In this document: piece after piece, positions 4,109 to 44,089 of the stretch | How positions within the stretch are numbered: position 1 is the first letter of the stretch | Layout: each line of letters opens with the position of its first letter | Virus record (IMG/VR): IMGVR_UViG_3300045988_142756 | Source of the DNA: a virus | Strand: one strand, 5' to 3' | Length of the DNA stretch: 64,000 nt | Translations under genes and position numbers: made by a program | Notes under the pieces: model-generated | What the model saw: the letters and a program-made list of their open reading frames with translations, nothing else | Told to the model about the DNA's origin: nothing | Database searches by the model: none

Positions 4109-4132
4109 TATGTATGGTAAATTTTTATATAT

Positions 4133-4267: not shown

Positions 4268-4344
4268 AAAATAATTTTAATTAAAATCGTCTACAAAATA
4301 TACAATAATAATATATTTAATTTACGAGGCGAAAGAAACAGACA

Positions 4345-4730: not shown

Positions 4731-4776
4731 TCGTAAGTAATATAGTAATGTACATAAACCTTAAAAGGAGCATATT

Positions 4777-5826: not shown

Positions 5827-6049
5827 CGGTGGCACGACAAATTGTCACCCTATGGATAAAAAATCGCGTGTGCTGAAATAAAGCAAGGGTTACTAACTAA
5901 TTCGCGGTAAGTTAATTGTAACAAGATACTCAAAGTACAAGAGTATGGTAGTAGTTTGGAAGCGGTTCTACTACAAAATTTTTAACAGGGCTACTTAGAA
6001 AACGAACGAGGGAAATATCGTGTCCGAAGTAAATTTAGCCCTACTTTAT

Positions 6050-6126
6050 CGGGGCGTGGCGCAGTTTGGGAGCGCGAATGGTTTGGGACCATTAGGCCGG
6101 AAGTTCAAATCTTCTCACCCCGACCA
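6050..6126 (+). tRNA. tRNA-Pro (anticodon UGG), encoded CCA
   Basis: D arm GCGC-AGTTTGGGA-GCGC; anticodon arm AATGG-TTTGGGA-CCATT; T arm GGAAG-TTCAAAT-CTTCT. One C-A mismatch in the acceptor stem. Confidence 0.85.
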
Positions 6127-6140
6127 AAATAAAAATATTT

Positions 6141-6217
6141 GGACCTTTAGCACAGTTGGTTAGTGCGTTCGGCTCATAACCGAATGGTCCTTGGTTCGAG
6201 TCCAAGAAGGTCCACCA
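6141..6217 (+). tRNA. tRNA-Met or tRNA-Ile2 (anticodon CAU), elongator type, encoded CCA
   Basis: Acceptor GGACCTT/AAGGTCC; D arm GCAC-AGTTGGTTA-GTGC; anticodon arm TTCGG-CTCATAA-CCGAA; T arm CTTGG-TTCGAGT-CCAAG. Confidence 0.9.
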
Positions 6218-6229
6218 GGTATTCGTTTT

Positions 6230-6302
6230 GTAGGTTTGCTGTTACCGCTGTAAAACAGTAATGAGAGAAAGATACGCGTTAAATATCTCATATCAAACCT
6301 AC
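6230..6302 (+). ncRNA. tRNA-sized (73 nt) three-way-junction element between tRNA-Met and tRNA-Thr
   Basis: A 9-bp closing stem GTAGGTTTG/CAAACCTAC. Inner hairpins CTGTT/AACAG and ATGAGA/TCTCAT. It is not a canonical cloverleaf. Confidence 0.2.
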
Positions 6303-6305
6303 CTT

Positions 6306-6380
6306 GCTGGTATGGCTCAATGGCAGAGCAATTGATTTGTAATCAATAGGTTGTTGGTTCGACTCCAACTATCAGCTCCA
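6306..6380 (+). tRNA. tRNA-Thr (anticodon UGU), encoded CCA
   Basis: Acceptor GCTGGTA/TATCAGC; D arm GCTC-AATGGCA-GAGC; anticodon arm ATTGA-TTTGTAA-TCAAT; T arm GTTGG-TTCGACT-CCAAC. Confidence 0.85.
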
Positions 6381-10780: not shown

Positions 10781-10984
10781 ATGAAATTAGCAGACAGACA
10801 AGCAAAATTAGACGCCCACAAATGGGAAATGAGCCAAAAAGCAGGACACGATACTTGCGGAGAATATGATTTCTGTGCATATTGTAAAGGTGAAGAAGAA
10901 TTCCCTTGTGCAAGGGCGTATGACAGATTTGACAGAGAATTAAGGTCGACTTCTGCGTACAGAAAAGACAAGAAAAAGAAATGA
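10781..10984 (+). CDS. small Cys-rich protein
   Basis: ATG 10781 with a CAGGAG RBS. The track start at 10718 overlaps the previous gene. Sequence ...GHDTCGEYDFCAYCKGEEEFPCA... Confidence 0.5.
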   Translation: MKLADRQAKLDAHKWEMSQKAGHDTCGEYDFCAYCKGEEEFPCARAYDRFDRELRSTSAYRKDKKKK

Positions 10985-11415
10985 AATTTACTATAATACA
11001 TAATAATAAAGAATATCTTATCGACGCTAATAGTTTTAGTGAAGCAAGAAAAAAATTATTAGATATGTCGTTTACACAATCCGACGCCATAGACAAATGT
11101 AATTCTTTGGGTAGACAGTTTATAAACCATTTTGATAAGATATATAAAAATCCTAAAAGTCAATCTGTAAATCACTGGATAACAGAAATGACAAATGGGT
11201 GGAAGGAAGTTAAACAGATTAGATTAAAAGCAGATAATAAACCTATATCTAATTCTAAACTTCACGACTGGTTTTTTACCGTTGGTTCATACCCAGAGGA
11301 CGTCATAACTCGGCCTATAAACGGTGAGTTAGAGTGCTATGATATATTTATATTCAAGGTATTAAACGGCTGTGCTATAAAGGAATCTTTACGCGAAAGC
11401 GGCGTTAAAATTTAA
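10981..11415 (+). CDS. hypothetical protein carrying the recurrent N-terminal module; body weakly resembles a DUF29-like helical bundle
   Basis: N-terminus MKFTIIHNNKEYLIDANSFSEARKKLLD; ATGA overlap. Confidence 0.6.
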   Translation: MKFTIIHNNKEYLIDANSFSEARKKLLDMSFTQSDAIDKCNSLGRQFINHFDKIYKNPKSQSVNHWITEMTNGWKEVKQIRLKADNKPISNSKLHDWFFTVGSYPEDVITRPINGELECYDIFIFKVLNGCAIKESLRESGVKI

Positions 11416-11460: not shown

Positions 11461-11742
11461 ATGATATCATATACAAGCAGAGTAGAAACATATACTAACT
11501 TCGGCGAGGATATAAAAAGAAATTGTGAACATCTTATAAAACTCGCTGAACAAGTAGATTCAGTACTAAATACATATTCAACTGATGTACAAGATATAGA
11601 CGCACAAAATCAAGCACACCAGATGTATTTAGCATTAAATCACGAAGTAAAAGAACTCGCAACTATATTAAATAGTATAAATGATGAAAATGGTCGACTT
11701 GATAGACTTTCAAATACATTACGACAAAGGGAAGGGCAATGA
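11461..11742 (+). CDS. hypothetical helical protein; small-terminase role not excluded
   Basis: 93 aa; first gene of the packaging block. The terminase suggestion is positional only. Confidence 0.55.
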   Translation: MISYTSRVETYTNFGEDIKRNCEHLIKLAEQVDSVLNTYSTDVQDIDAQNQAHQMYLALNHEVKELATILNSINDENGRLDRLSNTLRQREGQ

Positions 11743-12917
11743 AAACTTATAAGATAACCAGAGGTAATAAACAATATGTAATAAAAGCAAAAGATACTTA
11801 TTCTGCTGTTGCTAAATTACAGACTTTTTTGAAAGACAGTGAACCTATAGAAGATGATAGGTTATCTCCTATGACTTACAAAAAGTTAAAGGAAATGGGT
11901 TACAATTCAGACAAATGGAGAAATCTCACACAGGAAGAAGCAAACAAAATAGTTGCTAAATCTGAGACAAGTGCTAAACCCAAAACTGAAACGCCTAAGC
12001 AAGAAACTAAACAACCAAAAAATAATTCAGGTGCTGTTAAAAGTGAACTCGGTAACACTATAAGTTCCGATTTAGTTAAAAAATATCCTAATCTACATAA
12101 AGACTTAGGTAAGTTAGCGTCAGCGAATAGCAGAGTTCGTGAATTATCTAATTCAAATAATGGAAAAGATAAAGAAAAAGCATACGCATTGAGTGATAAG
12201 ATTGCGGCTTATTTAGATAAGCATTATCCGGATACATTAGGGGATGATTTAGGTGCGGATTCACTTTTAGATACTATTGGTGACGAAGATAGGTTTGAAG
12301 AAGCATTTTTGGATATCCTTGAAAATGGTAAACCAGAAGAAGCACCGGAAGAAACCGAATCTGTTAAATCAGAAGAAGGTCCAAGCAAGGAACTTCAAGA
12401 ACTTATTGCTAATAAACCTAATACTTTAGAATCTGCAACTGAACAAGGTAATAAGTTATGGGAGCAGATAAATAAAGATATTGCAAAACGTGGTTCAAAC
12501 ATTGTTAAAGCAAACGATGGCAGTGATTATACATTTGATATAACTGACGGCTCAAGTTATTCAAAAGCGTATAAAGCGGCATTGGCTGGTGCACCTGTAT
12601 CAGTAAATGGGTATGAAGCAAAAATTGAAAATCTTTCACCCGATGGGTATTTAAGAGCGTGCGCAACACAAAAAGAACAATCAGTTAAACAAATGATGGA
12701 AGACCGCATAGATGAAAATTATTATAAATTAGTTAAAGAATTAGGTAAATCTAAAACTATAAATAATTCTATATGGTTAGACCGGAATGCAAATCAACAA
12801 GAAGGTATTCATAGAGCAATGGCTCTTAAAAAATTAGGTGTAGAAACTATTCCTACCTTAGTGGTATCAAATAAACAAGTACCAGAAGAACAAAAAGATA
12901 AATATTTATCATTTTAA
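11739..12917 (+). CDS. recurrent N-terminal module plus C-terminal ParB/Srx-like nuclease-type domain
   Basis: N-terminus MKTYKITRGNKQYVIKAKDTYSAVAKLQTFLKD. C-terminal ...QQEGIHRAMALKKLGVETIPTLVV fits the ParB N-domain GxHR...G...IP pattern. Confidence 0.6.
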   Translation: MKTYKITRGNKQYVIKAKDTYSAVAKLQTFLKDSEPIEDDRLSPMTYKKLKEMGYNSDKWRNLTQEEANKIVAKSETSAKPKTETPKQETKQPKNNSGAVKSELGNTISSDLVKKYPNLHKDLGKLASANSRVRELSNSNNGKDKEKAYALSDKIAAYLDKHYPDTLGDDLGADSLLDTIGDEDRFEEAFLDILENGKPEEAPEETESVKSEEGPSKELQELIANKPNTLESATEQGNKLWEQINKDIAKRGSNIVKANDGSDYTFDITDGSSYSKAYKAALAGAPVSVNGYEAKIENLSPDGYLRACATQKEQSVKQMMEDRIDENYYKLVKELGKSKTINNSIWLDRNANQQEGIHRAMALKKLGVETIPTLVVSNKQVPEEQKDKYLSF

Positions 12918-12959
12918 TAAATAAAAACATTTATCAAATACAAAATAAAATATATATTG

Positions 12960-13012
12960 ATTCCTTTGATTCTATACAATATATTTGTATAACTAATCAA
13001 AGGAATTTTTTT
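12960..13012 (+). terminator. 12-bp perfect hairpin plus T7 run immediately upstream of terL
   Basis: ATTCCTTTGATT (12960-12971) pairs with AATCAAAGGAAT (12995-13006). The loop holds the palindrome ATACAA-tatat-TTGTAT. The T run at 13006-13012 abuts ATG 13013. Confidence 0.6.
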
Positions 13013-15116: not shown

Positions 15117-15608
15117 ATGAGCAAATATATTATTAGAAATGGAATACCCATTAGGCTTGAGGACAGTATTAACTTTGAAGCCTTAGATTATATAAGGCAA
15201 GAGAAAAAGTTATCTGATACTAAACAAGTTAAAGATACAAGTAAGGTAAAAGATGAATTATCCGAGAAAGATTCTAAAGAACTTGGTATTCGAGATATGA
15301 TTGCTTTTACTCAGCAAAGAATTAGAAGTTTAATAAATGATGAGTATGAAGCAATAGACGGTTATACTTCCGCTATCACCGAATTTATGCGAAATTATAA
15401 AGAAACTAATGATGAATTATATAATCAATTAGCAATGGTATTAGCGGATATAAAGAAAGAAGAATTTCCTCACGTCGGTGAATTAAATAAATGTTTAAGT
15501 TTAATTGATGAAGAGGAAGGTAGATTATTTAATAAAGGCGTCAGAGAAGCGAAAAAGACAGTAGAAAAATCAATGGCGCCACAAGAACAAGAACAAGTGG
15601 AGGAATAA
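15117..15608 (+). CDS. hypothetical acidic protein
   Basis: AAGAGG RBS; 163 aa. Confidence 0.6.
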   Translation: MSKYIIRNGIPIRLEDSINFEALDYIRQEKKLSDTKQVKDTSKVKDELSEKDSKELGIRDMIAFTQQRIRSLINDEYEAIDGYTSAITEFMRNYKETNDELYNQLAMVLADIKKEEFPHVGELNKCLSLIDEEEGRLFNKGVREAKKTVEKSMAPQEQEQVEE

Positions 15609-17281: not shown

Positions 17282-18934
17282 ATGGACAGGCTCAAAAAGA
17301 ACACTTTAATAGACAATATTGAAATATCCATCAGTGACGCTGCACCTAAGATGCCAACTGATATAAGTAAAGCATCAGTAGAGCAACGCATTAAAATGGC
17401 TACAAAGTTAATGGACGACGCATTAGGTATGTCCGTTAGTAATGGTGTGAGCGTTAAAGATGGGTCTTTCAATAATAGTCGACTTAAATTAGGTATAAGT
17501 GATATAAACCTTAACAGTGGCGAATACTTCACTGATATGATTACATTCGACAGAATGACAATCATAGAATTATATCACGGAAACTGGATATTTAGAAGAA
17601 TAATTGACAGGGTTGCACAAGATATGTGGTCACACGGTATTGCTATAAAATGTGATACAGACCCAGTCGAATTAGAAAATGTTTACAAAAGATTAAATAG
17701 ATTAAACAGTCAACTTATTTATGGACGAGAGCAGGCAAGGTTATTTGGTGGTGCTGCCTCTCTTATTATGGTTGACGATGGTGAAGAAGATTTATCAAAA
17801 CCATTAAATATAAATAATATAAAACCACATTCCCCTATAAGATTATATACAACGGATAGATGGTACGGGTTAGAAACAAGTACTGAATTAGTAACTAACT
17901 TCAAGAGCGTTGATTTTAATACACCTAAATATTATACCTTCTATTTAGATAACGGCGATTCTAAACGGTCTACACAGTTCACAAGAGTACATCATAGCAG
18001 AGTACTTCGTCATACAAATAGACGAACTGTAAGAATGATGGAAGATAGGCTTATGGGCTGGGGGTTAAGTGAGTTAGAACATATTTATCAAACACTTCTT
18101 GCTCATACCACAATGAATATGTCTTCCGTATCACTTGTCGGCAAATCATTACTTGAAATTGTTAAGGTTTCGGGTATGAGAGGTATGATGAGTGGACTCA
18201 GTATGGGTAACAGTGGAGCACAAGCACAATTAGGTGCCCAGTTGTCTGCAATAAATAATTATAGAAACATAAATGATTTAGTTTTAATTGATAAAGATGA
18301 CGAATATGACAGAAAAGAACTTCAATTAAATGGATTAAATGATTTATTACAAAACGAACAAGAACTTATTGCAGGTGCTGCTGAAATGCCACAGGTTCTA
18401 ATTTACGGACAAACTAAAAATGGTTTAGGCGATAATGCAACTGAAATGGTATTCTACGCACAAACAATTCTTGGAAAACAAGAAGCAGAGTTAAGGGTAG
18501 AATTAGATAAATTATTACCTATAATATTTAAGGTAGAAGGATTAGAAGTACCTTCAAATTTAGACTATGATTTTAATAGTATAAATGATATGGAACCTGA
18601 TGCAAAAGTAAATCTTATAAATAGTGTAGCAGGTGCTATAAATACTCTTACCGAAGCAGGGTTAATGACAAAAGAAACCGGATTAGCAGAATTAAAACAA
18701 TATTCGGCTATAACTGGATTTGGTGCTAACTTAGCAGAAAGAGATTTAGAGTTAGCCAAACAAATGGACCAGCAGTCGGGTGAAGAAGAAGATGAACTGA
18801 GCGGAATGAATTTAGGTAGTAATGAACCACAAGTTGGTGAAGAACAACCTGAAGATAATTTAACCGATGACTATGCAGAAGTAAAAGAAAAGGTACTTAA
18901 AAATAAATTCTTTGATAGGAAAAAGCGTAAATGA
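17282..18934 (+). CDS. portal protein (DUF1073-type)
   Basis: 550 aa. Supported by its position, the motif ELYHGNWIFRRIIDRVAQDMW and an acidic C-terminal tail. Confidence 0.75.
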   Translation: MDRLKKNTLIDNIEISISDAAPKMPTDISKASVEQRIKMATKLMDDALGMSVSNGVSVKDGSFNNSRLKLGISDINLNSGEYFTDMITFDRMTIIELYHGNWIFRRIIDRVAQDMWSHGIAIKCDTDPVELENVYKRLNRLNSQLIYGREQARLFGGAASLIMVDDGEEDLSKPLNINNIKPHSPIRLYTTDRWYGLETSTELVTNFKSVDFNTPKYYTFYLDNGDSKRSTQFTRVHHSRVLRHTNRRTVRMMEDRLMGWGLSELEHIYQTLLAHTTMNMSSVSLVGKSLLEIVKVSGMRGMMSGLSMGNSGAQAQLGAQLSAINNYRNINDLVLIDKDDEYDRKELQLNGLNDLLQNEQELIAGAAEMPQVLIYGQTKNGLGDNATEMVFYAQTILGKQEAELRVELDKLLPIIFKVEGLEVPSNLDYDFNSINDMEPDAKVNLINSVAGAINTLTEAGLMTKETGLAELKQYSAITGFGANLAERDLELAKQMDQQSGEEEDELSGMNLGSNEPQVGEEQPEDNLTDDYAEVKEKVLKNKFFDRKKRK

Positions 18935-19362
18935 TAAAACAATATAGAGTTAAAATAAATGATAGAAATTTTATTGTTAAGGCTGAGAATCAACGACAAG
19001 CAGTACTTAAAGTTAAGGCAGTAATAAGAGATATAGGCTCTATTATAAAAGGTGTGTCGTTTTCATACAAAGAAAATATACCTTCTGCACTAAACTTAAA
19101 TAAAATATATGACGATACTGTATATCGTTTAGGTAATAATACATATCTATATATTAGAATATTAACTACACAAAATCTAATGTTCCACGAAGATATGTGG
19201 AATTATATAGAACGGTTATATAAGGGTTCAGAATCTGAAAGATACGCTATAACGGCATATAAAGACCATAATAATAACGTAATATTTGAATCAAGTAATA
19301 ATAGCCCGTTTGATGCTAAGTTAGAACAGCTATGTAGGAAATATTATAGAAATAATGATTAA
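18931..19362 (+). CDS. hypothetical protein with the recurrent N-terminal module
   Basis: MIKQYRVKINDRNFIVKAENQRQAVLKVKAVIRD; ATGA overlap with the portal gene. Confidence 0.6.
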   Translation: MIKQYRVKINDRNFIVKAENQRQAVLKVKAVIRDIGSIIKGVSFSYKENIPSALNLNKIYDDTVYRLGNNTYLYIRILTTQNLMFHEDMWNYIERLYKGSESERYAITAYKDHNNNVIFESSNNSPFDAKLEQLCRKYYRNND

Positions 19363-19997: not shown

Positions 19998-21998
19998 ATG
20001 AGAGAATTTAGAATTAAAGTAAATGATGAAAAAACCTATGTAGTTAAAGCAAATGATTATAATCAAGCCGTTAAAACTTTACATAGTAAATTAAGAGATT
20101 TTGATTTAACAAACTTCCTTGCATTAAAACGTTCTCTTGAATTAAGAATAGGTGAAGAGATAGATTTTGATAAATTAGAAGAATACGTTAATAAATTACC
20201 AAAAGATAAAAACGGCAAGAAAAATGTAGATGTTAAAGAAGTTATTAAGTGCTGTATAAAAGCAAAGGATAACGCAGTAAGTGATTCCATTAGTAAGTAT
20301 AATGGTGAAGACGCAATAAGAACTAATGGTTTTGTAAAAATAAAAGAAGATGGTGATTGGACTTCCTATAAATATAATGGAAGTGATTTTGATGGTGCTG
20401 TTTTCAAAATTCATCAATACAATCCGAGTTTAATTGCTTTCGTCAGTAATGGTAATAGAACTATAACTGTAAGAAATAAATATCTTAATGACGCTGATAA
20501 TACTGCACAAGGTGAAATAGAAGTTTTGAAGTCTTTTGGATTTGATTATAAAGACGGAAAATGGGTAAAAGAATCTAATAATAACACTATTGTTGCCCAA
20601 CCTGATTATCATTATGTTTCCGTAATAGGACCTGGTGATACGGAGAAACATTGTAAAAAATATCAATATCAATCTGCAGGAATGCTTAAAAAAATAATAG
20701 CATCAAATATTAAAGATTCTTCTATAACTGATACGGATATGAAAACTGCCGAAGATATCATAAAGAAATATGGTGGTAATCCTGTTGGCAACGTTATGGG
20801 CTTACAAAAAACTCGTTTTGTAGGTCAAGATGAAATTAAAAATCAACACGATTTTGCCACTGACTTAGATAAAGCAGGGTATAAATTCTATTTAATAAAT
20901 GGTAGATATCGTATATCACCTAAAGATTCTTCTATAAAAGATGTATCTTATGTAAGTGGTAAAAACTTAAAAATAGGACAGAAAATAGTAGAAGATGGTG
21001 AAGTATTAGAAGTTGTGGATATAAAAGAAACTCAAAGGGGAGTAAATAATAATTATAGAGATGTAACTTTTAAGAATGTTAAAACAGGTGCTACTGAAAC
21101 CGTTCATTTTGGAAATAGTACATTGGCAAGATTAAATGATTATTCTATAAAAGATAGTGATAGTTATCAAGTATGGACTATAAATGAAAAAGGTGTATAT
21201 CATAAAGAAGCAGATGTACCAAATCCGCAATTAGCAAAAGCGATTGCGTCTCAATTAAAGAAACAAGGTAGATGGGTTCAGATATCTAAAAATTCAAGAA
21301 CAAATATAGTTAGTGACTGTGATATGATGGATTCTTTAAGTATAAAAGTTAAGCTTAATGGCAAAACATATAACGGTATATTTAATGGTATATCTAATAC
21401 AGATAAAACTTTCGGTGATGTATATATTCCTGAACTTGTTTCACTTCATAGCGGTGATAAAGGCGTATTTAATCCGGATGAAGGAAATTACGTTTCGGAC
21501 GGTAAATTTTATTTCAAGATGGAAAATCTTAAGAAATGGAATCCTTTTCTAAATAATTATTTAACTGATTCTAATATAACTGATGCTGACCCTGTAAAAG
21601 TAGAAAAGATTATTAGAAAAGAAAAAAGTGCATTAGGTGTTACATATTATATTTTCCAAACAAAATCAAGTAGTGGTTATACAATATATTATCAAGTAAC
21701 TGATAAAACTTATCACGGCGAACCTACTTACTCGGGCGGTGGTATAGTATCGTTCTCATTAAAATCAGCGAATGATACTTTAGACCATAACTTATTATCA
21801 GACAAACTCAAAGCAAAATATGGTGAGAAAGAAGGAACAAAGAGATATTTACGCGGTGAGAATGATAGTGCTATAAAAGATTCTAATAATATTAAAAATC
21901 GTAAATCTTATACAATAAAGGTAGGAGACAAACAGTATAAAGTATTTGCGGAATCTGAAAGTGAAGCAATAAATAAATACATTAAAAGTAAGAAATAA
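19998..21998 (+). CDS. large head-region protein (666 aa) with the module at both termini and seven D-S-x-I-[KT]-D-type motifs
   Basis: N-terminal MREFRIKVNDEKTYVVKANDYNQAVKTLHSKLRD. C-terminal KSYTIKVGDKQYKVFAESESEAINKYIKSKK. The motif Asp falls at residues 96, 240, 310, 381, 445, 524 and 623. Confidence 0.7.
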   Translation: MREFRIKVNDEKTYVVKANDYNQAVKTLHSKLRDFDLTNFLALKRSLELRIGEEIDFDKLEEYVNKLPKDKNGKKNVDVKEVIKCCIKAKDNAVSDSISKYNGEDAIRTNGFVKIKEDGDWTSYKYNGSDFDGAVFKIHQYNPSLIAFVSNGNRTITVRNKYLNDADNTAQGEIEVLKSFGFDYKDGKWVKESNNNTIVAQPDYHYVSVIGPGDTEKHCKKYQYQSAGMLKKIIASNIKDSSITDTDMKTAEDIIKKYGGNPVGNVMGLQKTRFVGQDEIKNQHDFATDLDKAGYKFYLINGRYRISPKDSSIKDVSYVSGKNLKIGQKIVEDGEVLEVVDIKETQRGVNNNYRDVTFKNVKTGATETVHFGNSTLARLNDYSIKDSDSYQVWTINEKGVYHKEADVPNPQLAKAIASQLKKQGRWVQISKNSRTNIVSDCDMMDSLSIKVKLNGKTYNGIFNGISNTDKTFGDVYIPELVSLHSGDKGVFNPDEGNYVSDGKFYFKMENLKKWNPFLNNYLTDSNITDADPVKVEKIIRKEKSALGVTYYIFQTKSSSGYTIYYQVTDKTYHGEPTYSGGGIVSFSLKSANDTLDHNLLSDKLKAKYGEKEGTKRYLRGENDSAIKDSNNIKNRKSYTIKVGDKQYKVFAESESEAINKYIKSKK

Positions 21999-22579
21999 TG
22001 ATGACAATAGAAGACTTAAAAATTAACATTGATAATTGTGTTAAATACATTAAAGATAAGTACGGAGAGCAGGAAGATTTAAGTCCTGCTCAATGGCTTA
22101 CCTTAATCGCCGAAGAATTTGGTGAATTTGCACAAGAAATAAACGATAATAATTTAGGTAACAATTTTATAGAAGAAGGTTGTCAAGTATGTGCAACTAC
22201 TTTATGTGCTATGGAGCAAATATTTAATAATTCAACTAAGGTGAATGTTATGGATAAGAAATTTGTAATTAAGAAAAATGACAAGAAATATGTAGTTTAT
22301 GCTACAGATGCTGAAACAGCAAAACAAAAATTAGAAGTTAAGATAAACCCAGATAGAGTTGTTGAAGTAGCAGATGCTTATAATATTTCTTTAGATAGGT
22401 ATGATAGTCAATTATCAAGATTAAATAACGCTATACAACTGTTAGAAGGCGTAGATGGATATAGTAAAATATATAACAGCGTCCAGGGGTTATGGGGTGT
22501 ATTGAAAAAAGAAATACAATCCGATAATAGACTTTCTGATGATGAGAAACAAGGTTTATTTAGAAAGTATAATTTATAA
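21998..22579 (+). CDS. MazG-like all-alpha NTP pyrophosphohydrolase domain fused to the recurrent module
   Basis: LIAEEFGEFAQEIND (EExxE motif). The module begins at the internal Met85 (nt 22250), which is preceded by an AAGGTG RBS-like sequence. Confidence 0.6.
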   Translation: MMTIEDLKINIDNCVKYIKDKYGEQEDLSPAQWLTLIAEEFGEFAQEINDNNLGNNFIEEGCQVCATTLCAMEQIFNNSTKVNVMDKKFVIKKNDKKYVVYATDAETAKQKLEVKINPDRVVEVADAYNISLDRYDSQLSRLNNAIQLLEGVDGYSKIYNSVQGLWGVLKKEIQSDNRLSDDEKQGLFRKYNL

Positions 22580-22584
22580 GATAA

Positions 22585-23508
22585 ATGAAAAAGAAACTTA
22601 CACCGAGTTTTCTTTTACGCAAACGAAAACGCTTAAAACCTAATCAGACCGCTGCGGTTAAATTTTTCAATTACTTAAAGAAAGAATTAACTAAGCAACT
22701 GAACCTTAAAAAAGATTCTACCATAGAAGACGCATTAGATAAACTTCTAAAGGTAGATTTCACAGGGATTAAAAAACATATTAACAGATTAGGTTTAGAC
22801 GTTCTAAAAAAGAATAGAGAAGGCTTTGCAAATATTCTTGAGTCTTTAACAATAGGCTTAGCACAACAAAATATACAAAAACAAAAACAACGAGAAGAAG
22901 AATTATTCAAACAAGCATTACCAAGCCTAATTAAAGAAACTAAGATATATCAACCTTTTTTGGATAAGTTTAATGAGAATATGTCGCTCATAAAAAACTT
23001 ACCAGCAGATGTTGAAAGAGAACTTAAAAAAGCATACCTTAAAGGCGAAGGATTCCGTGGACAGGATATAGAAGACTATATTACTGAGAAAATGGGTAAA
23101 CGAGCAAAACTCATTATCAGAACGGAAAGTGCTAAATTAAATTCTGCATTAACAGAAGTACGAGCAAAGAGTTTAGATATTAACTGTTATATGTGGAGTA
23201 CAAGTCAAGATGCAAGGGTAAGACCAAGTCATAAGTTAATGAATAATGTATTAGTATTCTTTAATGATACTCCTATTCTTGACGGAATGAAGGGTAATGC
23301 AGGTGAAACACCTAACTGTCGCTGTATTGAATTACCAGTATTTGGAATAGATGATATATCGTTTCCAGTAAAGGTAGCAGAAAGGTTAGTAGTAGATAGT
23401 AAATATAATAAATCTACTAAAAAGTCAAACGCAATAATAAAAAGCGGTAGAATCGCTATTTATAATAAAAAAGAATTTATAGAAAAATACGGAAATAATT
23501 TCAATTGA
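22585..23508 (+). CDS. head morphogenesis protein, Mu gpF / SPP1 gp7 family
   Basis: WSTSQDARVRPSHKLMNN...GETPNCRCIELPV matches the family signature R..H...P.CRC. Confidence 0.8.
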   Translation: MKKKLTPSFLLRKRKRLKPNQTAAVKFFNYLKKELTKQLNLKKDSTIEDALDKLLKVDFTGIKKHINRLGLDVLKKNREGFANILESLTIGLAQQNIQKQKQREEELFKQALPSLIKETKIYQPFLDKFNENMSLIKNLPADVERELKKAYLKGEGFRGQDIEDYITEKMGKRAKLIIRTESAKLNSALTEVRAKSLDINCYMWSTSQDARVRPSHKLMNNVLVFFNDTPILDGMKGNAGETPNCRCIELPVFGIDDISFPVKVAERLVVDSKYNKSTKKSNAIIKSGRIAIYNKKEFIEKYGNNFN

Positions 23509-23518
23509 GAGGTATTAA

Positions 23519-24919
23519 ATGAAAAAATTCAAAATTACACAAGGCGATAGGGTTTATATAGTTGATGCAAAAAGTCATATAGACGCTATTAGCAAAGTTA
23601 AGGCAGTTAAAACGGATGAGATGAGAGATTCTATATCTCAATGGAATCCAGGTATGAGTGAAATAGGTTTATTTCAAATTTCATACAAGCGCAACGGGGT
23701 ATATCAATCAATACTTGTCAGAGCCAACTCTGAAGAACAGGCAAAGCAGAAGTTATTAAACAATCTAAACGGAGTAGATATTATAGGAGTTAATTCCCAC
23801 CCTTCTCCTCACTTCCACGAACCTATTTTAGATTCTAAGATAAAAGATGATGGTTATTATTATTTACTCAGAGATGCTATTGATTTATTAACTAAACCGG
23901 GTGCAGCAAGAAGTTGGTCACAGCCTTATTTAGAGGAAGTACAAGAATATATGGTTCAAAAAGGCATAAACCCTACAAATGTAAATCAGTGGAAGAAAAA
24001 ATATGAAAGCCTTACTAAGGATTCCTCAATAAAAGATATAAATCAAGTATTATTATCTAATCTTAAACAAGTAGCACAAAAAGGTGATGCTTGGTGGAAT
24101 AAATGGAAGAAATTATTAGATATGAGTGATAAATGGAATTCTTATCAATGGAAGGAACTTAGAAATAATGACCCTAAAAAATATAAACTTATTATTAATA
24201 ATAAACAGTATGCGGAAAAAGAAGCTGAGGCACTAAATAGAGAATGGGATAGAGCAATAGATGCTTTAAGCAGAGACAGATCGTTTGGTCGTCCTGGTGA
24301 TTATAGAATGGATTTACACAGTTACAAATCTCGTAATGATAATTATCCTATGGGTAATAGTCGAAGATATGATGAGATTTTATATGGTTATGAACAAGCA
24401 GAAAAATCTGCCAGAGCAAAAAAGGGCTTAGATTCTTCTATAAAAGATGCGTGGTCTGGTATTAGAAGTAATGGGGTTATATTTAACTATTCTAATGGAA
24501 AATATACAATAACGCATAAGAATGGCAAGGTAGAAACATTCCCTGATAATAAATTTAATACTGTCGAAGAATTATTTAAGTATATAGATAATATAAAAGA
24601 CTCTGCTATTAAAGATGAAGATTATTCTAAATATTTGTCTATTGTAAAACAACTTGAGAAACTTGTAGAACCTGCTAATAGAGCGTTACAACAGAAAATT
24701 GCAAAATACGGTGTAACTAAACAAGATATAAGAAATAATTCTCCAAAATATAGAGATGTATGTAGAGAAATACCAGAATTAAAAGTATGGGCAAAGTTAA
24801 TTATGCAGTTACCTGGAGAATTAGCAGGATTTATGCCTGCACACCCGAGTCAAGAAAGTGTAGATAAACTTAAAAAAGCAATAACTAATAGTAAAGCATT
24901 TGACTCCACTATAAAATAA
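23519..24919 (+). CDS. large head-region protein (466 aa) with two module copies and six D-S-x-I-K-D-type motifs
   Basis: MKKFKITQGDRVYIVDAKSHIDAISKVKAVK, and FQISYKRNGVYQSILVRANSEEQAKQKLL. The motif Asp falls at residues 37, 105, 168, 305, 361 and 462 (C-terminal FDSTIK). Confidence 0.7.
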   Translation: MKKFKITQGDRVYIVDAKSHIDAISKVKAVKTDEMRDSISQWNPGMSEIGLFQISYKRNGVYQSILVRANSEEQAKQKLLNNLNGVDIIGVNSHPSPHFHEPILDSKIKDDGYYYLLRDAIDLLTKPGAARSWSQPYLEEVQEYMVQKGINPTNVNQWKKKYESLTKDSSIKDINQVLLSNLKQVAQKGDAWWNKWKKLLDMSDKWNSYQWKELRNNDPKKYKLIINNKQYAEKEAEALNREWDRAIDALSRDRSFGRPGDYRMDLHSYKSRNDNYPMGNSRRYDEILYGYEQAEKSARAKKGLDSSIKDAWSGIRSNGVIFNYSNGKYTITHKNGKVETFPDNKFNTVEELFKYIDNIKDSAIKDEDYSKYLSIVKQLEKLVEPANRALQQKIAKYGVTKQDIRNNSPKYRDVCREIPELKVWAKLIMQLPGELAGFMPAHPSQESVDKLKKAITNSKAFDSTIK

Positions 24920-25105: not shown

Positions 25106-26287
25106 ATGAGAATTATTGATAACAGATTAACATTTGGGCATAAGATAACTCCTCGTATTTGGGAAGATAATTCGGGTTATCTTATTTGCTATGACTGCAT
25201 ACTTGCAAGAACAGGTAGTTATGACTATTTGGAAAGTGAGATAATGCAAGACGGTGACCCAAATAAAATTGTAAAAGTATATAGAACTCCTGAAGAAGTA
25301 TTTAGTCCTGAGGCTATTGCTTCTTTTGAGAATAAACCATTTTGTAACGAACACCCACAAGACGATGTAACGCCGGAGAATTATAAGGACTTAATGGTAG
25401 GTACCATTAGGAATATTAGAAGGGGTACAGGTAATTTAGAAAACTGTTTAGTTGGCGATGTAATAGTTTTTGACCCCGAAGTACAAGAGTTAATTAAAAG
25501 CGGTGAAAAAAGAGAATTGTCGTTAGGTTATAATACAGATATAATACAAGACCAGTCAGGTCGATATGTGATGACTAATATAAGAGGAAATCACTTAGCA
25601 CTTGTTGACAGTGGTAGGGCAGGGTGTGCTACTATTAGAGATAGTGCAAAATCATTAAATAAATTAGGAGGACAAAACGGAATGAAGAATATCCGTAATG
25701 GCAAAAAATTCAAGTATAAGATGCTTGATGAGGACGTTTACGAAGTAGTAGATGCAGAGCCTGAAGAAGAACTTGATGTCATAGAAGATGATGATATTTC
25801 GACTGAAGAAGCACCTGCACCTGTTACAGAAGAGCCTGTCCACGATGACGACGACGATAAAATGAGTCAAGTTTTGGATATGCTCACTAAAATTTGTGAA
25901 CATTTAGGTATTGGTGCTGATGAAGCAGAACCCGTTGTTGACGAAGATGTACCTGAGGAAGTTGAAGAAGAAATCGTAACTGACGAAGATGTTCCTATGG
26001 AAGAAGATACGCCGGTAGAAGATGAAGATGATACTTTTGAAGTTGAAGAAATTGAAGACGACGACGAAGAATTAGAACTTAGTGAAGAAAACAAAGCAAT
26101 GGACGCAGATGCTTGCTTACCTAAGATGGACGAAGGTATGAAAAAAGATGCTGCTCCTAAAAAGAAGAGTGGTTCGGTGAAAGCATATTCTAAATTTGCA
26201 GCAGTTAAAGATTCGGCTCCTGTTGTAACAGCAGAAGATGTACAAAAATCGTTCCAAGACCGTTATGATAGAGCGGCTAAGAATTAA
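25106..26287 (+). CDS. scaffold or prohead-protease-like protein (DUF2213-like) with a long acidic tract
   Basis: GNHLALVDSGRAG motif. D/E-rich region at about aa 210-330. Located upstream of the capsid gene. Confidence 0.6.
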   Translation: MRIIDNRLTFGHKITPRIWEDNSGYLICYDCILARTGSYDYLESEIMQDGDPNKIVKVYRTPEEVFSPEAIASFENKPFCNEHPQDDVTPENYKDLMVGTIRNIRRGTGNLENCLVGDVIVFDPEVQELIKSGEKRELSLGYNTDIIQDQSGRYVMTNIRGNHLALVDSGRAGCATIRDSAKSLNKLGGQNGMKNIRNGKKFKYKMLDEDVYEVVDAEPEEELDVIEDDDISTEEAPAPVTEEPVHDDDDDKMSQVLDMLTKICEHLGIGADEAEPVVDEDVPEEVEEEIVTDEDVPMEEDTPVEDEDDTFEVEEIEDDDEELELSEENKAMDADACLPKMDEGMKKDAAPKKKSGSVKAYSKFAAVKDSAPVVTAEDVQKSFQDRYDRAAKN

Positions 26288-26809: not shown

Positions 26810-27946
26810 ATGGCAAATCAAATTTTTCAGCAAGTAAGCCTCAGAGATAGCACGGAAAGTATTGCGGCTACTCACGGCGAACAAAAACTTGGTATCAAAT
26901 TAAGGGATTGGGCTCCTGCTGTATATCATCAGTTGTATAAAGACCCTGTTAAGGCACGTATTCACGATGCAAACTTTGCATTCGTTATGACAACCCTTAG
27001 CAAACTTCACAATAAACAATATCAACCGAAAGTCAACTACACTTACGCACAAGATATTCCTATCGATGTCGGCGGTGGAATGGTTGATTTCGTGGATTAC
27101 TTCTCGGTAGAATGGGCAGGTCAGCCCACTGAGGACCAGAACGTTATGGGTAATAACGTCAATATTATTCCTCGTGTTAATGCTAAACTCAATCATACGG
27201 CAGTTGAAGTTTACAACTTTGAAATTGCTTATGATATGAAGTTTATTGAAGTTGACAAACTCGAGAAGATTAGTTTCCAAAAAGCAGTTGAAGCAATTTA
27301 TAAAGATGCTATTATGGCTGGTTGGGACCAGTTCTGTGACCGTATTGCTTATGAAGGTCGTGCAGGTGTTGATGGCTTTATCAACAATGCTAATGTTCCT
27401 GTAAATGAAATTCCGGCAGGTTCCAAAGATGCAAGTAAGACTGGTTTCGAAGGTATGACGGATGAAGAAATCGTAAGTTTCATTAACGGTATTCTTAACC
27501 TTTATCTTACTAACACTAACCAGAACATTGAAATGTTACCTGATACGTTATTACTTCCTACGAAAGATGCTGCTATTCTTTCGAGCAGGTTCAGTGCATT
27601 ATATACCTCGACATTGCGTGAATTCATTATGAAACACAATATAGGTATTGACGAAGCAGTTGCTGCTGGTGTTAATAACTATGTTCTTAAGATTCGTGGT
27701 CGTGCAAGACTTAACGGTATTGGCACACATAACACAGGTCGTATAATTGCTTATAAGTTCGATAAAGATTATGTCCGTATGGATATTCCTTATCCTATCC
27801 AGAGTTATTATACCGCTCCTAACATTGATAAAGCGTGCTATACCACATACTTTGTCGGTCAGGTATCTCGTATCCAACTTCCGTACAATGAGAGCGCTGA
27901 TACATTTGGTGCTGTTTCGTACTGGGATTTCGCTGCACAAGGCTAA
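26810..27946 (+). CDS. major capsid protein (DUF2184-like)
   Basis: 378 aa; GAGGAGG RBS. Supported by its position after the scaffold and by the hairpin that follows. Confidence 0.75.
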   Translation: MANQIFQQVSLRDSTESIAATHGEQKLGIKLRDWAPAVYHQLYKDPVKARIHDANFAFVMTTLSKLHNKQYQPKVNYTYAQDIPIDVGGGMVDFVDYFSVEWAGQPTEDQNVMGNNVNIIPRVNAKLNHTAVEVYNFEIAYDMKFIEVDKLEKISFQKAVEAIYKDAIMAGWDQFCDRIAYEGRAGVDGFINNANVPVNEIPAGSKDASKTGFEGMTDEEIVSFINGILNLYLTNTNQNIEMLPDTLLLPTKDAAILSSRFSALYTSTLREFIMKHNIGIDEAVAAGVNNYVLKIRGRARLNGIGTHNTGRIIAYKFDKDYVRMDIPYPIQSYYTAPNIDKACYTTYFVGQVSRIQLPYNESADTFGAVSYWDFAAQG

Positions 27947-40783: not shown

Positions 40784-43743
40784 GCAAATCAGTTATAATA
40801 AATGATATAAACAATGCTTCTCCTAATGTTACTACCCATATAATACCCGCGATTAGGGCTATAAATAAAGGCAGTAATTACGACGATTTAGGAAATAAAC
40901 CTATATATAATATAAATTTATTGGAAGAAGGTTTTGAGCCGATAGAAGGCGAATATTACCGTCATACAGGGGAAACTAATAATACTTTTACAACGGGCGT
41001 TATTTATTATTATAAAGAAGGCATATATACCCCTATAACAGGTAGTGTAAAAAGTACATCTAATAATTTTGCTTGCACTGGAATATTAGAAAAAAGTAAA
41101 TGGGTAGATAAAAGTATAGTATATACAGAACCTAAATCACTTAAATACTATGATGTTAGTAGTTACACAGAAAAAGTAAAATGTGCTGGAATTAAAAATA
41201 ATATTTTATATCAATTTAATTCTAACGGATATCATAAAACAAATTTAGAAAATCCTGATGCTCACGAATTTATTAGTTGGAGTTCAACAGGTATTGAAAA
41301 CCTTGACGGAAATGTAGACCCGATAATGTGTACTACCGGTATATATGGTGCTTATGGTGAAGCATTATATATATTATGTAGTGGAAATGGAACAAGTAAT
41401 CCCGTAATTATTATGTTTGATGTACCACAATATAATTATGTTGATTATATAGTTGCTACTGAACTGAAAGGTAACATATCGTCTATTATTGTATTACCTG
41501 CAACTAATGGAGAAGAATCACCAAATGTATGGGGAATAAAAGATAATACAAAACTTATACAATTCGGAGATACAGGTACACCGGATAAATTTAGTATTGA
41601 TTTACCTGAAAGAATAAGTGATTCTAATTTATGTATATATAATAATGAATTATATATTACAGGCGGAAGCATAAAAAATATATATAAATTTAATTTTGAT
41701 ACGAAAGAAATAACTAAGGTATGTACTGTACCTAATTATTTTGGTCCGTCTTTAGTAGACGCACCTTGTTATGCTATCGTAATCAATGATAAAATATATG
41801 GTATAGATACTTCTAATAATTTAGTTGTATATGATATGAGTGGCGCTAAAATCGGAGAAGTACCAAAAATATTAACTAACGAAGATTATAGCAGCCCTAT
41901 ATTCTATTGTACATTTATTTACCATAATAGCAATTTATATATATCACATTGCTTGGCACAAGGTTATAATAACCCAGTTGGATTTGTTATTTCCGAATTA
42001 AAAGATATTAGGTATGAATATTCTATTGAAAACGAAGGAATAAAGGAAAATTCTGCAACAAGTATAAGTCTTAACAGTAATTATCCTATAATAGATGCGA
42101 CTAAGACACAAGGAAAAATATCACTTATAAGTAATAATACACCTGACGATAATAAGTATTCAATAATTCAAGTACCTACGCAAGATACAGGTATATTAGA
42201 AGTATTAAATACTTATAGAATACAAAAAATATCAGAAGTAGAAAATGATAGAGGTTTTGTTACAGATAAACAAGTAAATAGTGCTATTAAATCTTTTAAT
42301 CAAACATATCAACCTGATTGGGAAGAAGAAAATCCAAATTCTGTAACATATATTAAAAATAAAGATAATGTTAATTATACATTAACAGAATCAGATTGGA
42401 CTGATGACTGTTTTTCGTCAAGTAACATTACACTTACTACCACTGAGGGTGAATATTTAAGTGACTATGGTCAACTTAATAATGATAATATTATTACACA
42501 AGGAAAAATAACATTAAATGACGAAACAAGTGACGTATTAGTTAGAAGAATAAATTATTCCCTTACGGACGAATTCAAAAAATTAGTTAATAATAGTATA
42601 TTTTACACAGTTGATGGTATAGAATACAAACAACTCATATTAAATGGAATACCTGAAAATGAAGAAATAGCACAAATACAGTGTATAGAGAATCCTCCTA
42701 CAGGTGACCCGTTCTTATGGGTGGTTCATACTGGTGACGAAAACCGTGAATTAGACGATAACCCAACGTATGAATCAAAAGATGGAGTAAATTATACTGT
42801 AAGTACAAGGTTTAAGGGCAAATACAGAATCTATGCTACAGAAGATATGTGGATATGTAATTTAAGTTCAAGAAAATATGATAGTAGTTCAGGAAAATAT
42901 TATCAAACAATTGAACAGACTAATAATAAAAATGTTGCTTATTGGGATACGGTTACTTTCAATGTAGATAGAGATGCGTATTATACTGATGTACAAGTAT
43001 GTAAAGACGAAGGTAAAACATATTTTATGCTACAAAGTGAAAATACAAATGTTATAAAAAGAAATAGCGCATCTATAGGTTATTGGCAATCTGTATATAA
43101 ACCAGCTTCTACAATTAAATTTAATCTTATAAGGTGTATTGGCGATTATATATTTGTATTTGATACAAGTGGAAATTTATTACGAGCACATATCTACACT
43201 ACGCCTGGAAGTACAATTGACATTGACTTTCCTAATAATTTAGGTAAACCACGTAATAAAAATATAGAAGCGTTAAAATATCTAAACAAACGTTATATAT
43301 ATTCTGATTATGCTTCTTCTGGGACTTATTATATTTATAATTTCGGTGCTAACTTTGAAGGTAATCCTACATTTGATACTGCTACTAAGTATATTTCGCA
43401 CGGAGCATCTATGCCAAGATTATTATATTGTATAAATGGTAGATACTTAGGATTAGACAATACTTCAACAGCAAAGAATACAAAGGTTGTATATACAGAT
43501 GTATTACAAAATCCTTCGTATTCAAGAATTGTATTCGATAGTTATTTTTATCACGATTATCATCAAAACAATACAGACAGTAAAATTAGATTATATAAAT
43601 ATAAAAGTGCTCATAATATAAGCAGAAACGAAAAAACAGGTAACTTTTATAGTAAATATGGTGAAAAACCTACAATTCATATAACTGCAATACCTGCGGC
43701 AGTTAGATTTGATTTAGTGGTGAATGAATATGCAGAAGTATAA
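40780..43743 (+). CDS. large tail protein (987 aa) with Kelch-like repeat region
   Basis: NNELYITGGSIKNIYKFNFDTKEITKV...INDKIYGIDTSNNLVVYDMSG resembles Kelch blades. ATGA overlap. Confidence 0.65.
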   Translation: MSKSVIINDINNASPNVTTHIIPAIRAINKGSNYDDLGNKPIYNINLLEEGFEPIEGEYYRHTGETNNTFTTGVIYYYKEGIYTPITGSVKSTSNNFACTGILEKSKWVDKSIVYTEPKSLKYYDVSSYTEKVKCAGIKNNILYQFNSNGYHKTNLENPDAHEFISWSSTGIENLDGNVDPIMCTTGIYGAYGEALYILCSGNGTSNPVIIMFDVPQYNYVDYIVATELKGNISSIIVLPATNGEESPNVWGIKDNTKLIQFGDTGTPDKFSIDLPERISDSNLCIYNNELYITGGSIKNIYKFNFDTKEITKVCTVPNYFGPSLVDAPCYAIVINDKIYGIDTSNNLVVYDMSGAKIGEVPKILTNEDYSSPIFYCTFIYHNSNLYISHCLAQGYNNPVGFVISELKDIRYEYSIENEGIKENSATSISLNSNYPIIDATKTQGKISLISNNTPDDNKYSIIQVPTQDTGILEVLNTYRIQKISEVENDRGFVTDKQVNSAIKSFNQTYQPDWEEENPNSVTYIKNKDNVNYTLTESDWTDDCFSSSNITLTTTEGEYLSDYGQLNNDNIITQGKITLNDETSDVLVRRINYSLTDEFKKLVNNSIFYTVDGIEYKQLILNGIPENEEIAQIQCIENPPTGDPFLWVVHTGDENRELDDNPTYESKDGVNYTVSTRFKGKYRIYATEDMWICNLSSRKYDSSSGKYYQTIEQTNNKNVAYWDTVTFNVDRDAYYTDVQVCKDEGKTYFMLQSENTNVIKRNSASIGYWQSVYKPASTIKFNLIRCIGDYIFVFDTSGNLLRAHIYTTPGSTIDIDFPNNLGKPRNKNIEALKYLNKRYIYSDYASSGTYYIYNFGANFEGNPTFDTATKYISHGASMPRLLYCINGRYLGLDNTSTAKNTKVVYTDVLQNPSYSRIVFDSYFYHDYHQNNTDSKIRLYKYKSAHNISRNEKTGNFYSKYGEKPTIHITAIPAAVRFDLVVNEYAEV

Positions 43744-44089
43744 TATTATAAAAGATTCAGTTATAACTGACGATATAGATATACCGGATATTGTATTTAT
43801 AAATGACGAATATGAAGACCCTACCATAACAACCTATATTATGACTGGGGTCAGAGCAATAGTAGGTGAAAAAGCGTGGATATTTAATACCACTGAAGAA
43901 ATGAATGAGTGGTTAAATAATCCGGCTAATGTAAAGAAATTAAATGCAGGCGACGATATAAGAATAATAGCAGAAGGTGCTTCTAACTATTGGTGGGACG
44001 GTAACCAACTTAGAGTTACGGCGTCCGGTTTAACAATAGAGGAAGTAGCAAGAACTTATAAAGAAGCCGTTAATAATGTATTTAAGTAA
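43724..44089 (+). CDS. hypothetical tail-fibre-region protein
   Basis: 121 aa; overlaps the end of the previous gene. Confidence 0.5.
   Translation: MNMQKYNIIKDSVITDDIDIPDIVFINDEYEDPTITTYIMTGVRAIVGEKAWIFNTTEEMNEWLNNPANVKKLNAGDDIRIIAEGASNYWWDGNQLRVTASGLTIEEVARTYKEAVNNVFK

Follow-up and report, generated by a model that had tools for sequence, protein, structure and literature searches.

Results

The two modular head-block proteins and their junction peptide

We analyzed a stretch of 64,000 nucleotides (nt) from the IMG/VR virus record IMGVR_UViG_3300045988_142756 (hereafter the window), which belongs to an uncultured phage of approximately 93 kb, and examined a hexapeptide that recurs in two large proteins of its head region, p666, of 666 amino acids (aa), and p466, of 466 aa. 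The window is AT-rich, with approximately 31% G+C, and its likely genes all lie on the + strand. The order in the head block is a 680-aa protein (13013-15055), which we assume from its position alone to be the large terminase and which gave no Pfam match at E <= 0.001, a tail-tube-like protein, the portal (17282, PF06381), small proteins, p666, a 193-aa protein, a MuF-like protein (22585, PF04233), p466, a DUF2213/Pa193_gp24 protein (25106, PF09979), a cement-like protein, and the major capsid protein (26810, PF09950). The same proteins were found in uncultured contigs of approximately 92-103 kb, and IMG/VR held only two near-identical contigs of this lineage. No cultured relative was found when the region was compared by megablast with 50,697 phage records, and among cultured phages the capsid protein had matches of less than 30% identity only. 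The modules and junctions of p666 and p466 are given below, together with the predicted local distance difference test score (pLDDT) of the AlphaFold2 (AF2) model and comparisons with L003, a near-identical IMG/VR contig.

19998..21998, + strand: p666, an array of nine modules in the order A-B-C-D-G-I-J-K-M (our labels), annotated against 25 module types
19998..20099, + strand: N-module of p666 (module A), residues 1-34, ending in L-R-D; hidden Markov model (HMM) domain E 1.5e-17
20268..20285, + strand: degenerate junction DNAVSD between modules B and C, residues 91-96, in the context IKAK/DNAVSD/SISKY; 76 instances of the B/C joint
20715..20732, + strand: junction DSSITD between C and D, residues 240-245; L003 is without module D, with the joint exactly here
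20925..20942, + strand: junction DSSIKD between D and G, residues 310-315; pLDDT below 50 over 311-321
21138..21155, + strand: junction DYSIKD between G and I, residues 381-386; additional module here in L003
21315..21332, + strand: degenerate junction DCDMMD between I and J, residues 440-445; I and J are separate in relatives, and pLDDT is below 50 over 433-446
21567..21584, + strand: junction DSNITD between J and K, residues 524-529
21864..21881, + strand: junction DSAIKD between K and M, residues 623-628; additional module here in L003
21882..21995, + strand: module M, which repeats the N-module fold and closes p666; HMM domain E 1.6e-14
23519..24919, + strand: p466, the second array, with an N-module and five modules
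23519..23617, + strand: N-module of p466, residues 1-33; HMM domain E 3.5e-16
23831..23848, + strand: junction DSKIKD, p466 residues 105-110
24020..24037, + strand: junction DSSIKD, p466 residues 168-173
24431..24448, + strand: junction DSSIKD, p466 residues 305-310; DNA identity to L003 starts within it
24599..24616, + strand: junction DSAIKD, p466 residues 361-366
24902..24919, + strand: truncated junction DSTIK followed by the stop codon, p466 C-terminus

A sequence-only reading of the window had named a series of open reading frames (ORFs) and motif positions in p666 and p466, all of which exist. Five of its seven p666 sites (beginning at residues 240, 310, 381, 524, and 623) were in register, whereas comparison with relatives placed the true junctions near the other two at DNAVSD (91-96) instead of SDSISK at residue 96, and at DCDMMD (440-445) instead of MDSLSIK at residue 445. 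In addition to its four hexapeptides (105, 168, 305, and 361), p466 contained the DSTIK-stop sequence (462) and a degenerate DEMRD/S at residues 33-37. The strict pattern DS.I[KT]D thus occurred four times in p666 and four times in p466. Both proteins are rich in Lys, Asp, Ser, and Ile and the genome has a G+C content of approximately 31%, so that composition alone might be thought to produce such a motif. In an enrichment test, however, 20,000 residue permutations of p666 and p466 gave a mean of 0.007 copies, and none of them reached the observed eight. A scan of the window's whole set of 95 + strand ORFs, 19,453 aa in total, found the strict motif outside the two arrays only once in the remaining approximately 18,300 residues, at residue 11 of the gene at 43724..44089, and the relaxed pattern DS.I.D added only residue 44 of the MuF-like protein. 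Furthermore, the motif was kept at homologous and non-homologous junctions across hundreds of relatives. The shuffles and the window-wide census exclude a chance origin, the probability of which we regard as negligible. Related copies reported in other head-block genes, KDSEPIED in the gene at 11739, KDSTIED at residue 44 of the MuF-like protein, and EDSINF in the gene at 15117, were also recovered.

The single strict copy elsewhere (KDSVITD) lies in a small protein near its N-terminus, and the neighboring small protein at 44104-44505 has IDSKIKP at residue 16, likewise near the N-terminus. Both genes are assumed from gene order to belong to the tail/baseplate region, and these peptides could be chance occurrences or further protease sites.

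Exchange of modules at the junction

Related phages differed by gain, loss, duplication, and reordering of modules and by exchange between genes, all at the junction. In the p666 orthologue of L003, the stretch between the motifs at 240 and 310 was exactly missing and additional stretches were present exactly at the motifs at 381 and 623; in its p466 orthologue, unrelated sequence occupied the space between two motifs, with flanks of 99% identity. We found 229 relatives of p666 (442-1161 aa) and 183 relatives of p466, and for each protein the 120 listed relatives were used for module analysis; an exhaustive HMMER search of 1.84 billion representative proteins gave only 49 relatives. The p666 set contained 480 motif copies, of which DSSIKD (148), DSAIKD (87), DSSITD (62), and DSNITD (37) were the commonest. 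The stretches between motifs could be grouped into distinct families, many of which had a constant length (62, 70, 71, 99, 143 aa, and others), and the 25 module types of p666 were combined into 99 architectures with 77 distinct neighbor pairs. For p466 there were 87 architectures, including permutations of order such as 1-7 and 7-1. Homology between relatives started five or fewer residues from a motif in 20% of cases, compared with 5.5% at random positions, and ended within 0-20 residues of a motif in 41%, compared with 11% at random.

Orthologues of three further genes varied likewise between relatives.

11739..12917, + strand: N-module protein with KDSEPIED after the N-module; relatives have extra modules at that point
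15117..15608, + strand: 163-aa protein with EDSINF near the N-terminus; in the relative L008, an additional module of 65 aa lies between VNDS and KDNNTIKD
21998..22579, + strand: protein of 193 aa; the N-module is internal (22253..22354), and the C-terminal module varies between strains

In the same genomes, the portal, 18931, 19392, MuF, DUF2213, and capsid genes were 95-99.8% identical in DNA and had no insertions or deletions. Modules were shared across p666-type and p466-type genes. In a lineage whose DUF2213 protein was only 45% identical, and whose core head proteins were approximately 45% identical, modules were approximately 85-90% identical as judged by eye, which indicated exchange of single modules between phages. 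In at least five head-block genes, the motif joins the units of a combinatorial module system, a feature that the sequence-only reading had missed.

Some domains of the variable proteins were tentatively recognized by eye, and Pfam did not confirm them. The N-terminal region of the 21998 protein appeared MazG-like (an all-alpha NTP pyrophosphohydrolase), and its PHROG matches were only of unknown function. The C-terminal part of the 11739 protein (..QQEGIHRAMALKKLGVETIPTLVV..) appeared ParB/Srx-like, and a similar domain was seen in the distant lineage L034 (3270-4340, 4776-6788, and 7127-8368) in two proteins, one of which heads an array.

DNA and peptide conservation of the junction

Among 90 unique junctions, Asp occupied position 1 in 86 and position 6 in 89. 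For positions 2-4, co-variation was stronger with the upstream module (z 7.5-9.1) than with the downstream one (4.3-5.7), whereas for position 5 the downstream module gave the higher value (z 10.9, against 5.1 upstream). This split co-variation indicated that crossovers take place inside the 18 nt that encode the hexapeptide. Where the swapped segment of p466 ends on the right, DNA identity to L003 began at TC(T/G)ATAAAAGAT and was absent upstream. The motif-coding sequence is therefore the place where crossovers happen, which was a second point overlooked by the sequence-only reading.

The 19-mer GATTCTTCTATAAAAGATG, previously noticed as identical at 20925 and 24431, was indeed the same at both positions and proved to be part of a family of seven 25-nt direct repeats within 19998..24919, the copies of which were only 76-84% identical to each other. 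Motif codons were more uniform than genome codon use would predict: of 25 Ser codons, 19 were TCT (26% in the genome as a whole), and of 26 Ile codons, 22 were ATA (54%). This uniformity indicated that the repeat behaves as a short homology for in-frame exchange of modules. The data largely establish that the junction acts as an in-frame direct repeat of 18-25 nt, within which crossovers would move whole modules while keeping both the reading frame and the junction site; such crossovers would explain the extreme combinatorial diversity of the arrays. The 18-mer GATTCTTCTATAAAAGAT was also searched for in IMG/VR and occurred in 24 stretches, 21 of them on other contigs, each with one in-frame motif or none. 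These matches were taken as chance; the two inspected (L031 and L032) looked unrelated, and no further lineage was gained.

The sequence-only reading had pointed to codon differences between motif copies as a sign of selection at the protein level. Codons did differ between copies, with Ser encoded by both TCN and AGY within this lineage, and the proposed selection was borne out by distant lineages, which retain the peptide with other codons. Lineages with DUF2213 proteins 61%, 45%, and 33-44% identical kept D-[S/A/T/N]-x-[I/V/M]-x-D with different codons, for example AGC TAC ATT AAA GAC, GCA GCT ATT AAA GAT, and AGT GAT GTT ACA GAT, and array proteins only 31-40% identical to p666 still had DSAIKD, DNAIKD, or DSMIRD. 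These comparisons indicated that the motif is under peptide-level selection. Many junctions were degenerate (DNAVSD, DESVKD, or a single D), yet they remained module borders.

Predicted structure and the shared N-module

In the AF2 model of p666, residues 33-37, 311-321, 374-388, 433-446, 520-530, and 620-631 were coil with pLDDT below 50, and these segments corresponded to junctions; beta-rich or alpha/beta units were predicted between them. Module A was predicted to be a 33-residue beta-hairpin followed by a helix (beta-beta-alpha), with strands at 2-8 and 12-18 and a helix at 21-31, and module M to repeat this fold (strands 636-642 and 645-651, helix 654-665). Module A or its counterpart headed every array protein, including all 120 listed p666 relatives, and the 39-residue module M ended 119 of the 120. 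The p666 arrays are thus capped at both ends by the same mini-domain.

A profile of the N-module, the likely targeting role of which the sequence-only reading had missed, detected seven copies in the window, in six genes, all in the head block: at the N-termini of 10981, 11739, 18931, p666, and p466, internally in 21998, and at the C-terminus of p666. Two of these genes have not been listed above.

10981..11415, + strand: 144-aa protein with a weaker N-terminal N-module, HMM E 1.4e-5
18931..19362, + strand: 143-aa protein with an N-module ending in I-R-D and a single further domain; HMM E 2e-17

All 31 distinct non-terminal N-modules among the collected proteins ended in hydrophobic-x-Asp (LRD, VKD, VRD, IKD, etc.); D-ending sequences had served to train the profile, which makes this count partly circular. 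Pfam and PHROGs searches with whole p666 and p466, single modules, and N-modules gave nothing besides EFP_N (EF-P KOW-like), for which module G alone passed the Pfam threshold. A fold search with the low-confidence p666 model gave only marginal EF-P/eIF5A matches, which fits module G.

A predicted prohead protease and the hydrophobic-x-Asp signature

The following neighboring head genes were compared with the arrays.

25106..26287, + strand: DUF2213/Pa193_gp24 protein, Pfam PF09979 2e-45, PHROG 530 "head maturation protease"
26810..27946, + strand: major capsid protein, Pfam PF09950, with a 53-residue N-terminal leader containing three hydrophobic-x-Asp sites
17282..18934, + strand: portal, Pfam PF06381, with V-K-D60/G at 17453..17461
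22585..23508, + strand: MuF-like head protein, PF04233, invariant between strains, with KDSTIED at residues 43-49 (motif 22714..22731)

An AF2 model of the 25106 protein, built with 36 diverse homologues, had a confident domain at residues 12-171 (pLDDT approximately 90), and the part after residue 171 was predicted to be a disordered, acidic, scaffold-like tail with two helices. In a Foldseek search, the only significant fold match of the N-terminal domain in the PDB was the T4 prohead protease gp21 (5JBL, three chains; E 3e-4, probability 1.0, target-normalized TM score 0.50). His83, Ser139 (in ELSLGY), and His163 were invariant in the 36 sequences, down to 33% identity. On the basis of this model, the 25106 protein is predicted to have the gp21 fold. 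In the structure paper of phage Pa193, gp24 was described as a putative scaffolding protein, of which only residues 286-326 were seen, in contact with the inner side of the capsid vertices. The gp21 fold and this view would be compatible if the protein were a protease-scaffold fusion.

Several variants of this protein were seen in other phages. Module K of p666 was fused to a DUF2213 C-terminal part in P0258, P0260, P0261, P0276, and P0284, and a DUF2213 protein in L035 (10001-11497; P0237) had an N-module and extra domains replacing the acidic tail.

In T4, the sites of gp21 have the form I/L-x-E, with the cut behind Glu (PMC12991175, PMC9026906). The last three residues of the junction hexapeptide are [I/V]-x-D, and its first Asp often has a hydrophobic residue two places upstream as well (NIKD-SS-IKD). 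The hydrophobic residue before both Asp residues suggested that a junction may hold two tandem sites, like the redundant propeptide sites of phiKZ (PMC9026906). Comparable sequences were found in the head proteins. In the 25106 protein there were two candidate self-cleavage sites, I-R-D179/S (25634..25642) at the end of the protease domain, in which Ile177 and Asp179 were invariant in the 36 sequences and to which V-L-D corresponds in position in Pa193 gp24, and V-K-D369/S (26204..26212) near the C-terminus, in which Asp369 was near-invariant (V-x-D). The capsid leader had L-R-D13 (26840..26848), L-R-D33 (26900..26908), and I-H-D53 (26960..26968); Asp13, Asp33, His52, and Asp53 were invariant over five lineages, with the variants L-[KR]-D33 and [IL]-H-D53, and the solved capsid homologue 8hdt aligned from Asp53 onward only. 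In a five-lineage alignment of the portal, V-x-D60/G lay at the border between a variable N-terminal leader and the conserved body, and an I-x-D/E column in the MuF leader was conserved over four lineages. One acidic-P1 consensus, as a sequence pattern only, was thus common to the cargo junctions, the N-module ends, the protease, and the capsid, portal, and MuF leaders. In the DUF2213-bearing Pbunaviruses E217 and Pa193, residue 66 is the first one modeled in the capsid protein, and cleavage was suspected by the authors (PMC10329688, PMC11456595). The sequence at this position is A-M-D64-S65-N66 in the capsid protein of JG024, a related Pbunavirus.

Other features of the window and of related head blocks

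Four tRNA genes (Leu-TAA, Pro-TGG, Met-CAT, and Thr-TGT) were present at 5740-6380 on the + strand. A 212-aa ORF at 55671-56309 matched Pfam AgrB (24.6 bits, cutoff 23), the accessory gene regulator B peptidase of Firmicutes quorum sensing, which is unusual in a phage and, as a guess, may hint at a Firmicutes host. The ORF at 58358-58897 had a BclA C-terminal (C1q-like) domain slightly below the cutoff (35.7 bits, cutoff 38), and the ORF at 61177-62841 was a clear SNF2-family helicase.

The head block was organized differently in L036 (1743-8969), the DUF2213 protein of which was 40% identical: large LRR_5/CBM proteins lay directly upstream of the protease-capsid genes and replaced MuF and the cargo arrays. 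In L037, the MuF gene (3404-4792) had an apparent intein-like insertion (faint Pfam Intein_splicing match; 462 against 307 aa), the capsid protein (11743-13305) had a C-terminal extension of approximately 140 residues, and an ADP-ribosylglycohydrolase gene lay nearby.

Discussion

The hexapeptide D-[S/N]-x-[I/V/M]-x-D is best explained as the conserved junction of modular head "cargo" polyproteins. In the mechanism that we propose, the N-module would bring the precursor into the assembling prohead, as the T4 capsid-targeting sequence does, and the predicted gp21-fold protease encoded at 25106..26287 would cut after Asp in exposed hydrophobic-x-Asp sites, one or two per junction. Cutting would take off the N-module and free the modules as separate small proteins within the capsid, and these would probably enter the host together with the DNA. 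The protease would also trim itself, the capsid leader, the portal leader, and MuF at equivalent sites. From the sequence patterns and structural models, we consider it somewhat probable that the junctions are sites of an Asp-specific gp21-fold protease, that the N-module targets the prohead, and that the modules are freed inside the capsid. By analogy with T4 internal proteins and polyvalent proteins (PMC5512222), we suggest only tentatively that the modules are injected host-takeover or anti-defense proteins. The sequence-only reading had proposed that the motifs are linkers or cleavage sites dividing polyproteins into pieces. Division into independent pieces of approximately 40-140 aa held, with motifs in low-confidence coil between folded units and relatives that gain, lose, and swap modules there; cleavage was strengthened but not proven, by a predicted gp21-like fold next door and by hydrophobic-x-Asp at the usual head-protease sites.

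The main rival of processing at the junctions is that the hexapeptide is an uncleaved inter-domain linker, kept as recombination homology, and that p666 and p466 remain intact multi-domain head or internal proteins. Crossovers inside the motif, motif codons more uniform than codon usage predicts, the location of the motifs in coil between domains, and the absence of direct evidence of cleavage would all agree with such a linker. However, the peptide is kept while its codons change in distant lineages, which argues for selection on the peptide; the two near-invariant Asp residues exceed the needs of a mere flexible linker; hydrophobic-x-Asp is also conserved in head proteins that are neither modular nor recombining; and the predicted gp21-fold protease is encoded next door. 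We therefore regard an uncleaved linker as a serious but rather doubtful explanation. Recombination could also be the primary function, with the 18-nt repeat as the target of a dedicated site-specific recombinase, as in shufflons or integrons, and the peptide as a by-product. Seven direct copies of the 25-nt repeat family, the reordering and duplication of modules, and breakpoints inside the repeat would be expected of such a system, but no integrase or recombinase domain was found in 20 larger ORFs of the window, outside which lie approximately 30 kb of the genome. The low identity among repeat copies, the encoding of the same peptide by different DNA in distant lineages, and the degenerate junctions that still work as module borders make a dedicated recombinase very unlikely. 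It is also improbable that the motif is a repeated short binding peptide that, for example, anchors the array to the capsid interior, the scaffold, or DNA. The motif is exposed, conserved as a peptide, and contains charged residues, and the Pa193 gp24 fragment binds the capsid interior electrostatically, but precedent and structural support for such an anchor are absent, and it would leave unexplained the same Asp-ending signature at the leader/body border of the capsid protein, portal, MuF, and protease. On inspection only, other ways of obtaining separate modules were rejected: internal promoters or translation starts after the motifs, since the modules begin with V, S, A, T, or D and have no ATG or ribosome-binding site, and 2A-like ribosome skipping or intein-like self-cleavage, for which no matching sequence features were seen.

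Several points weigh against Asp-specific processing of the arrays within the capsid. The scissile bond is a guess, and module G alone belongs to a recognizable family (EF-P KOW-like). In the Pa193 structure paper, gp24 is presented as a scaffolding protein, and no protease activity is reported for it. Hydrophobic-x-Asp is a signature of low information that is frequent by chance, and the AF2 model of p666 is of low confidence overall (mean pLDDT 57). The argument from residue 66 of the Pbunavirus capsid is only suggestive, because no alignment between that capsid protein and the one studied here was obtained by profile comparison. Strain-chimeric metagenome assemblies, formed within shared modules, may have raised the counts of whole-protein architectures; the junction pairs, however, cannot be assembly chimeras, because the repeat is shorter than typical assembly k-mers.

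The proposed system draws on known ingredients, namely a head protease that recognizes a short consensus with an acidic P1, leaders that target proteins to the capsid, and mosaic multi-domain proteins associated with the virion. The T4 internal proteins (IPI-III and Alt) likewise combine a shared N-terminal element, on otherwise unrelated head-internal proteins, with a following site that has a hydrophobic P3 and an acidic P1. T4 gp21 is of the same fold as that predicted here, and it also trims the capsid protein, the scaffold, the portal-vertex proteins, and itself (PMC9026906). The proposed P1 residue here is Asp, whereas that of T4 is Glu, where Asp blocks processing (PMC9026906). The T4 targeting sequence is a peptide of 10-19 residues on single-domain proteins, unlike the predicted folded 33-residue beta-beta-alpha module that heads arrays of up to approximately 15 modules. 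We know of no combinatorial shuffling of modules at the cleavage site in T4. The inner-body or ejection proteins of phiKZ, 201phi2-1, and SPN3US resemble the arrays in being cut many times by a gp21-like protease at a short motif with an acidic end and redundant neighboring sites (PMC9026906, PMC7411985). These are jumbo phages, however, in which propeptides are removed from large proteins, and they have no small interchangeable modules with one conserved hexapeptide between them.

Polyvalent proteins, known from phages and conjugative elements (Iyer et al. 2017, PMC5512222), are, like the arrays, multi-domain, highly mosaic, and encoded among virion genes near MuF and the portal; their packaging and injection were predicted, and their release by proteolysis was proposed (PMC5512222). 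The same mosaicism is seen here in the nine and six modules of p666 and p466, the genes of which lie between those of the portal, MuF, and the putative protease. Polyvalent proteins, however, carry known conflict-related enzymatic domains and often a peptidase domain of their own, whereas the modules here are tiny orphans. By Pfam and PHROG, the conflict repertoire (MuF, ParB, ART, metallopeptidase, methylase, etc.) was absent in p666 and p466, MuF being a separate gene, and a single junction peptide that delimits all modules has not been described for polyvalent proteins (PMC5512222). Nor did the locus have the MuF polymorphic-toxin architecture, in which an N-terminal MuF domain is followed by a variable toxin at the C-terminus: the MuF-like protein is a standalone protein of 307 aa that was 97-99.8% identical between strains with differing arrays. 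Polyproteins of eukaryotic RNA viruses are similarly divided at a repeated short consensus by their own protease, but their order is fixed and their products are essential, in contrast to the accessory and combinatorially variable arrays. In shufflons and polymorphic-toxin cassettes, short conserved border sequences also permit quick exchange of segments. Shufflons use inverted 19-bp sites and a dedicated recombinase, whereas the repeats here are direct and in frame, and in polymorphic toxins only the C-terminal domain is swapped, whereas the many repeats here would allow change at every position of the array.

A full-text literature search (motif strings, DUF2213, COG3566, and polyprotein with capsid targeting) retrieved no description of this system. 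Relative to the literature searched, the new elements are one junction peptide that delimits dozens of interchangeable orphan modules, the double role of this junction as a peptide site and a DNA crossover point, and a putative Asp-type consensus for the DUF2213 family.

A more speculative possibility is that the arrays constitute a cassette system at the protein level, in which 18 nt would encode both a protease site and an in-frame recombination joint, so that any small effector module lying between two junctions would automatically be loaded into the capsid behind the shared targeting module, freed as a protein of its own, and exchangeable. The arrays could then, with similar reservation, be seen as rapidly evolving libraries of injected host-takeover and anti-defense proteins that are exchanged between genes and between distant phages.

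Whether or not the junctions are cut, their in-frame repeat represents a clear natural case of domain shuffling at a dedicated joint. If they are cut, they would amount to a compact rule by which a single precursor supplies a phage head with many small proteins, and would explain how phages swap such proteins quickly. The DUF2213/Pa193_gp24 family, which is widespread and is called only a putative scaffold in structural papers, would thereby gain a first functional handle, as a predicted Asp-specific relative of the Glu-specific T4 protease. The N-module together with the junction peptide would then be a signature for capsid-delivered effectors, most of which are unannotated in uncultured gut phages, and would offer a natural design for engineered phages that deliver several protein payloads.

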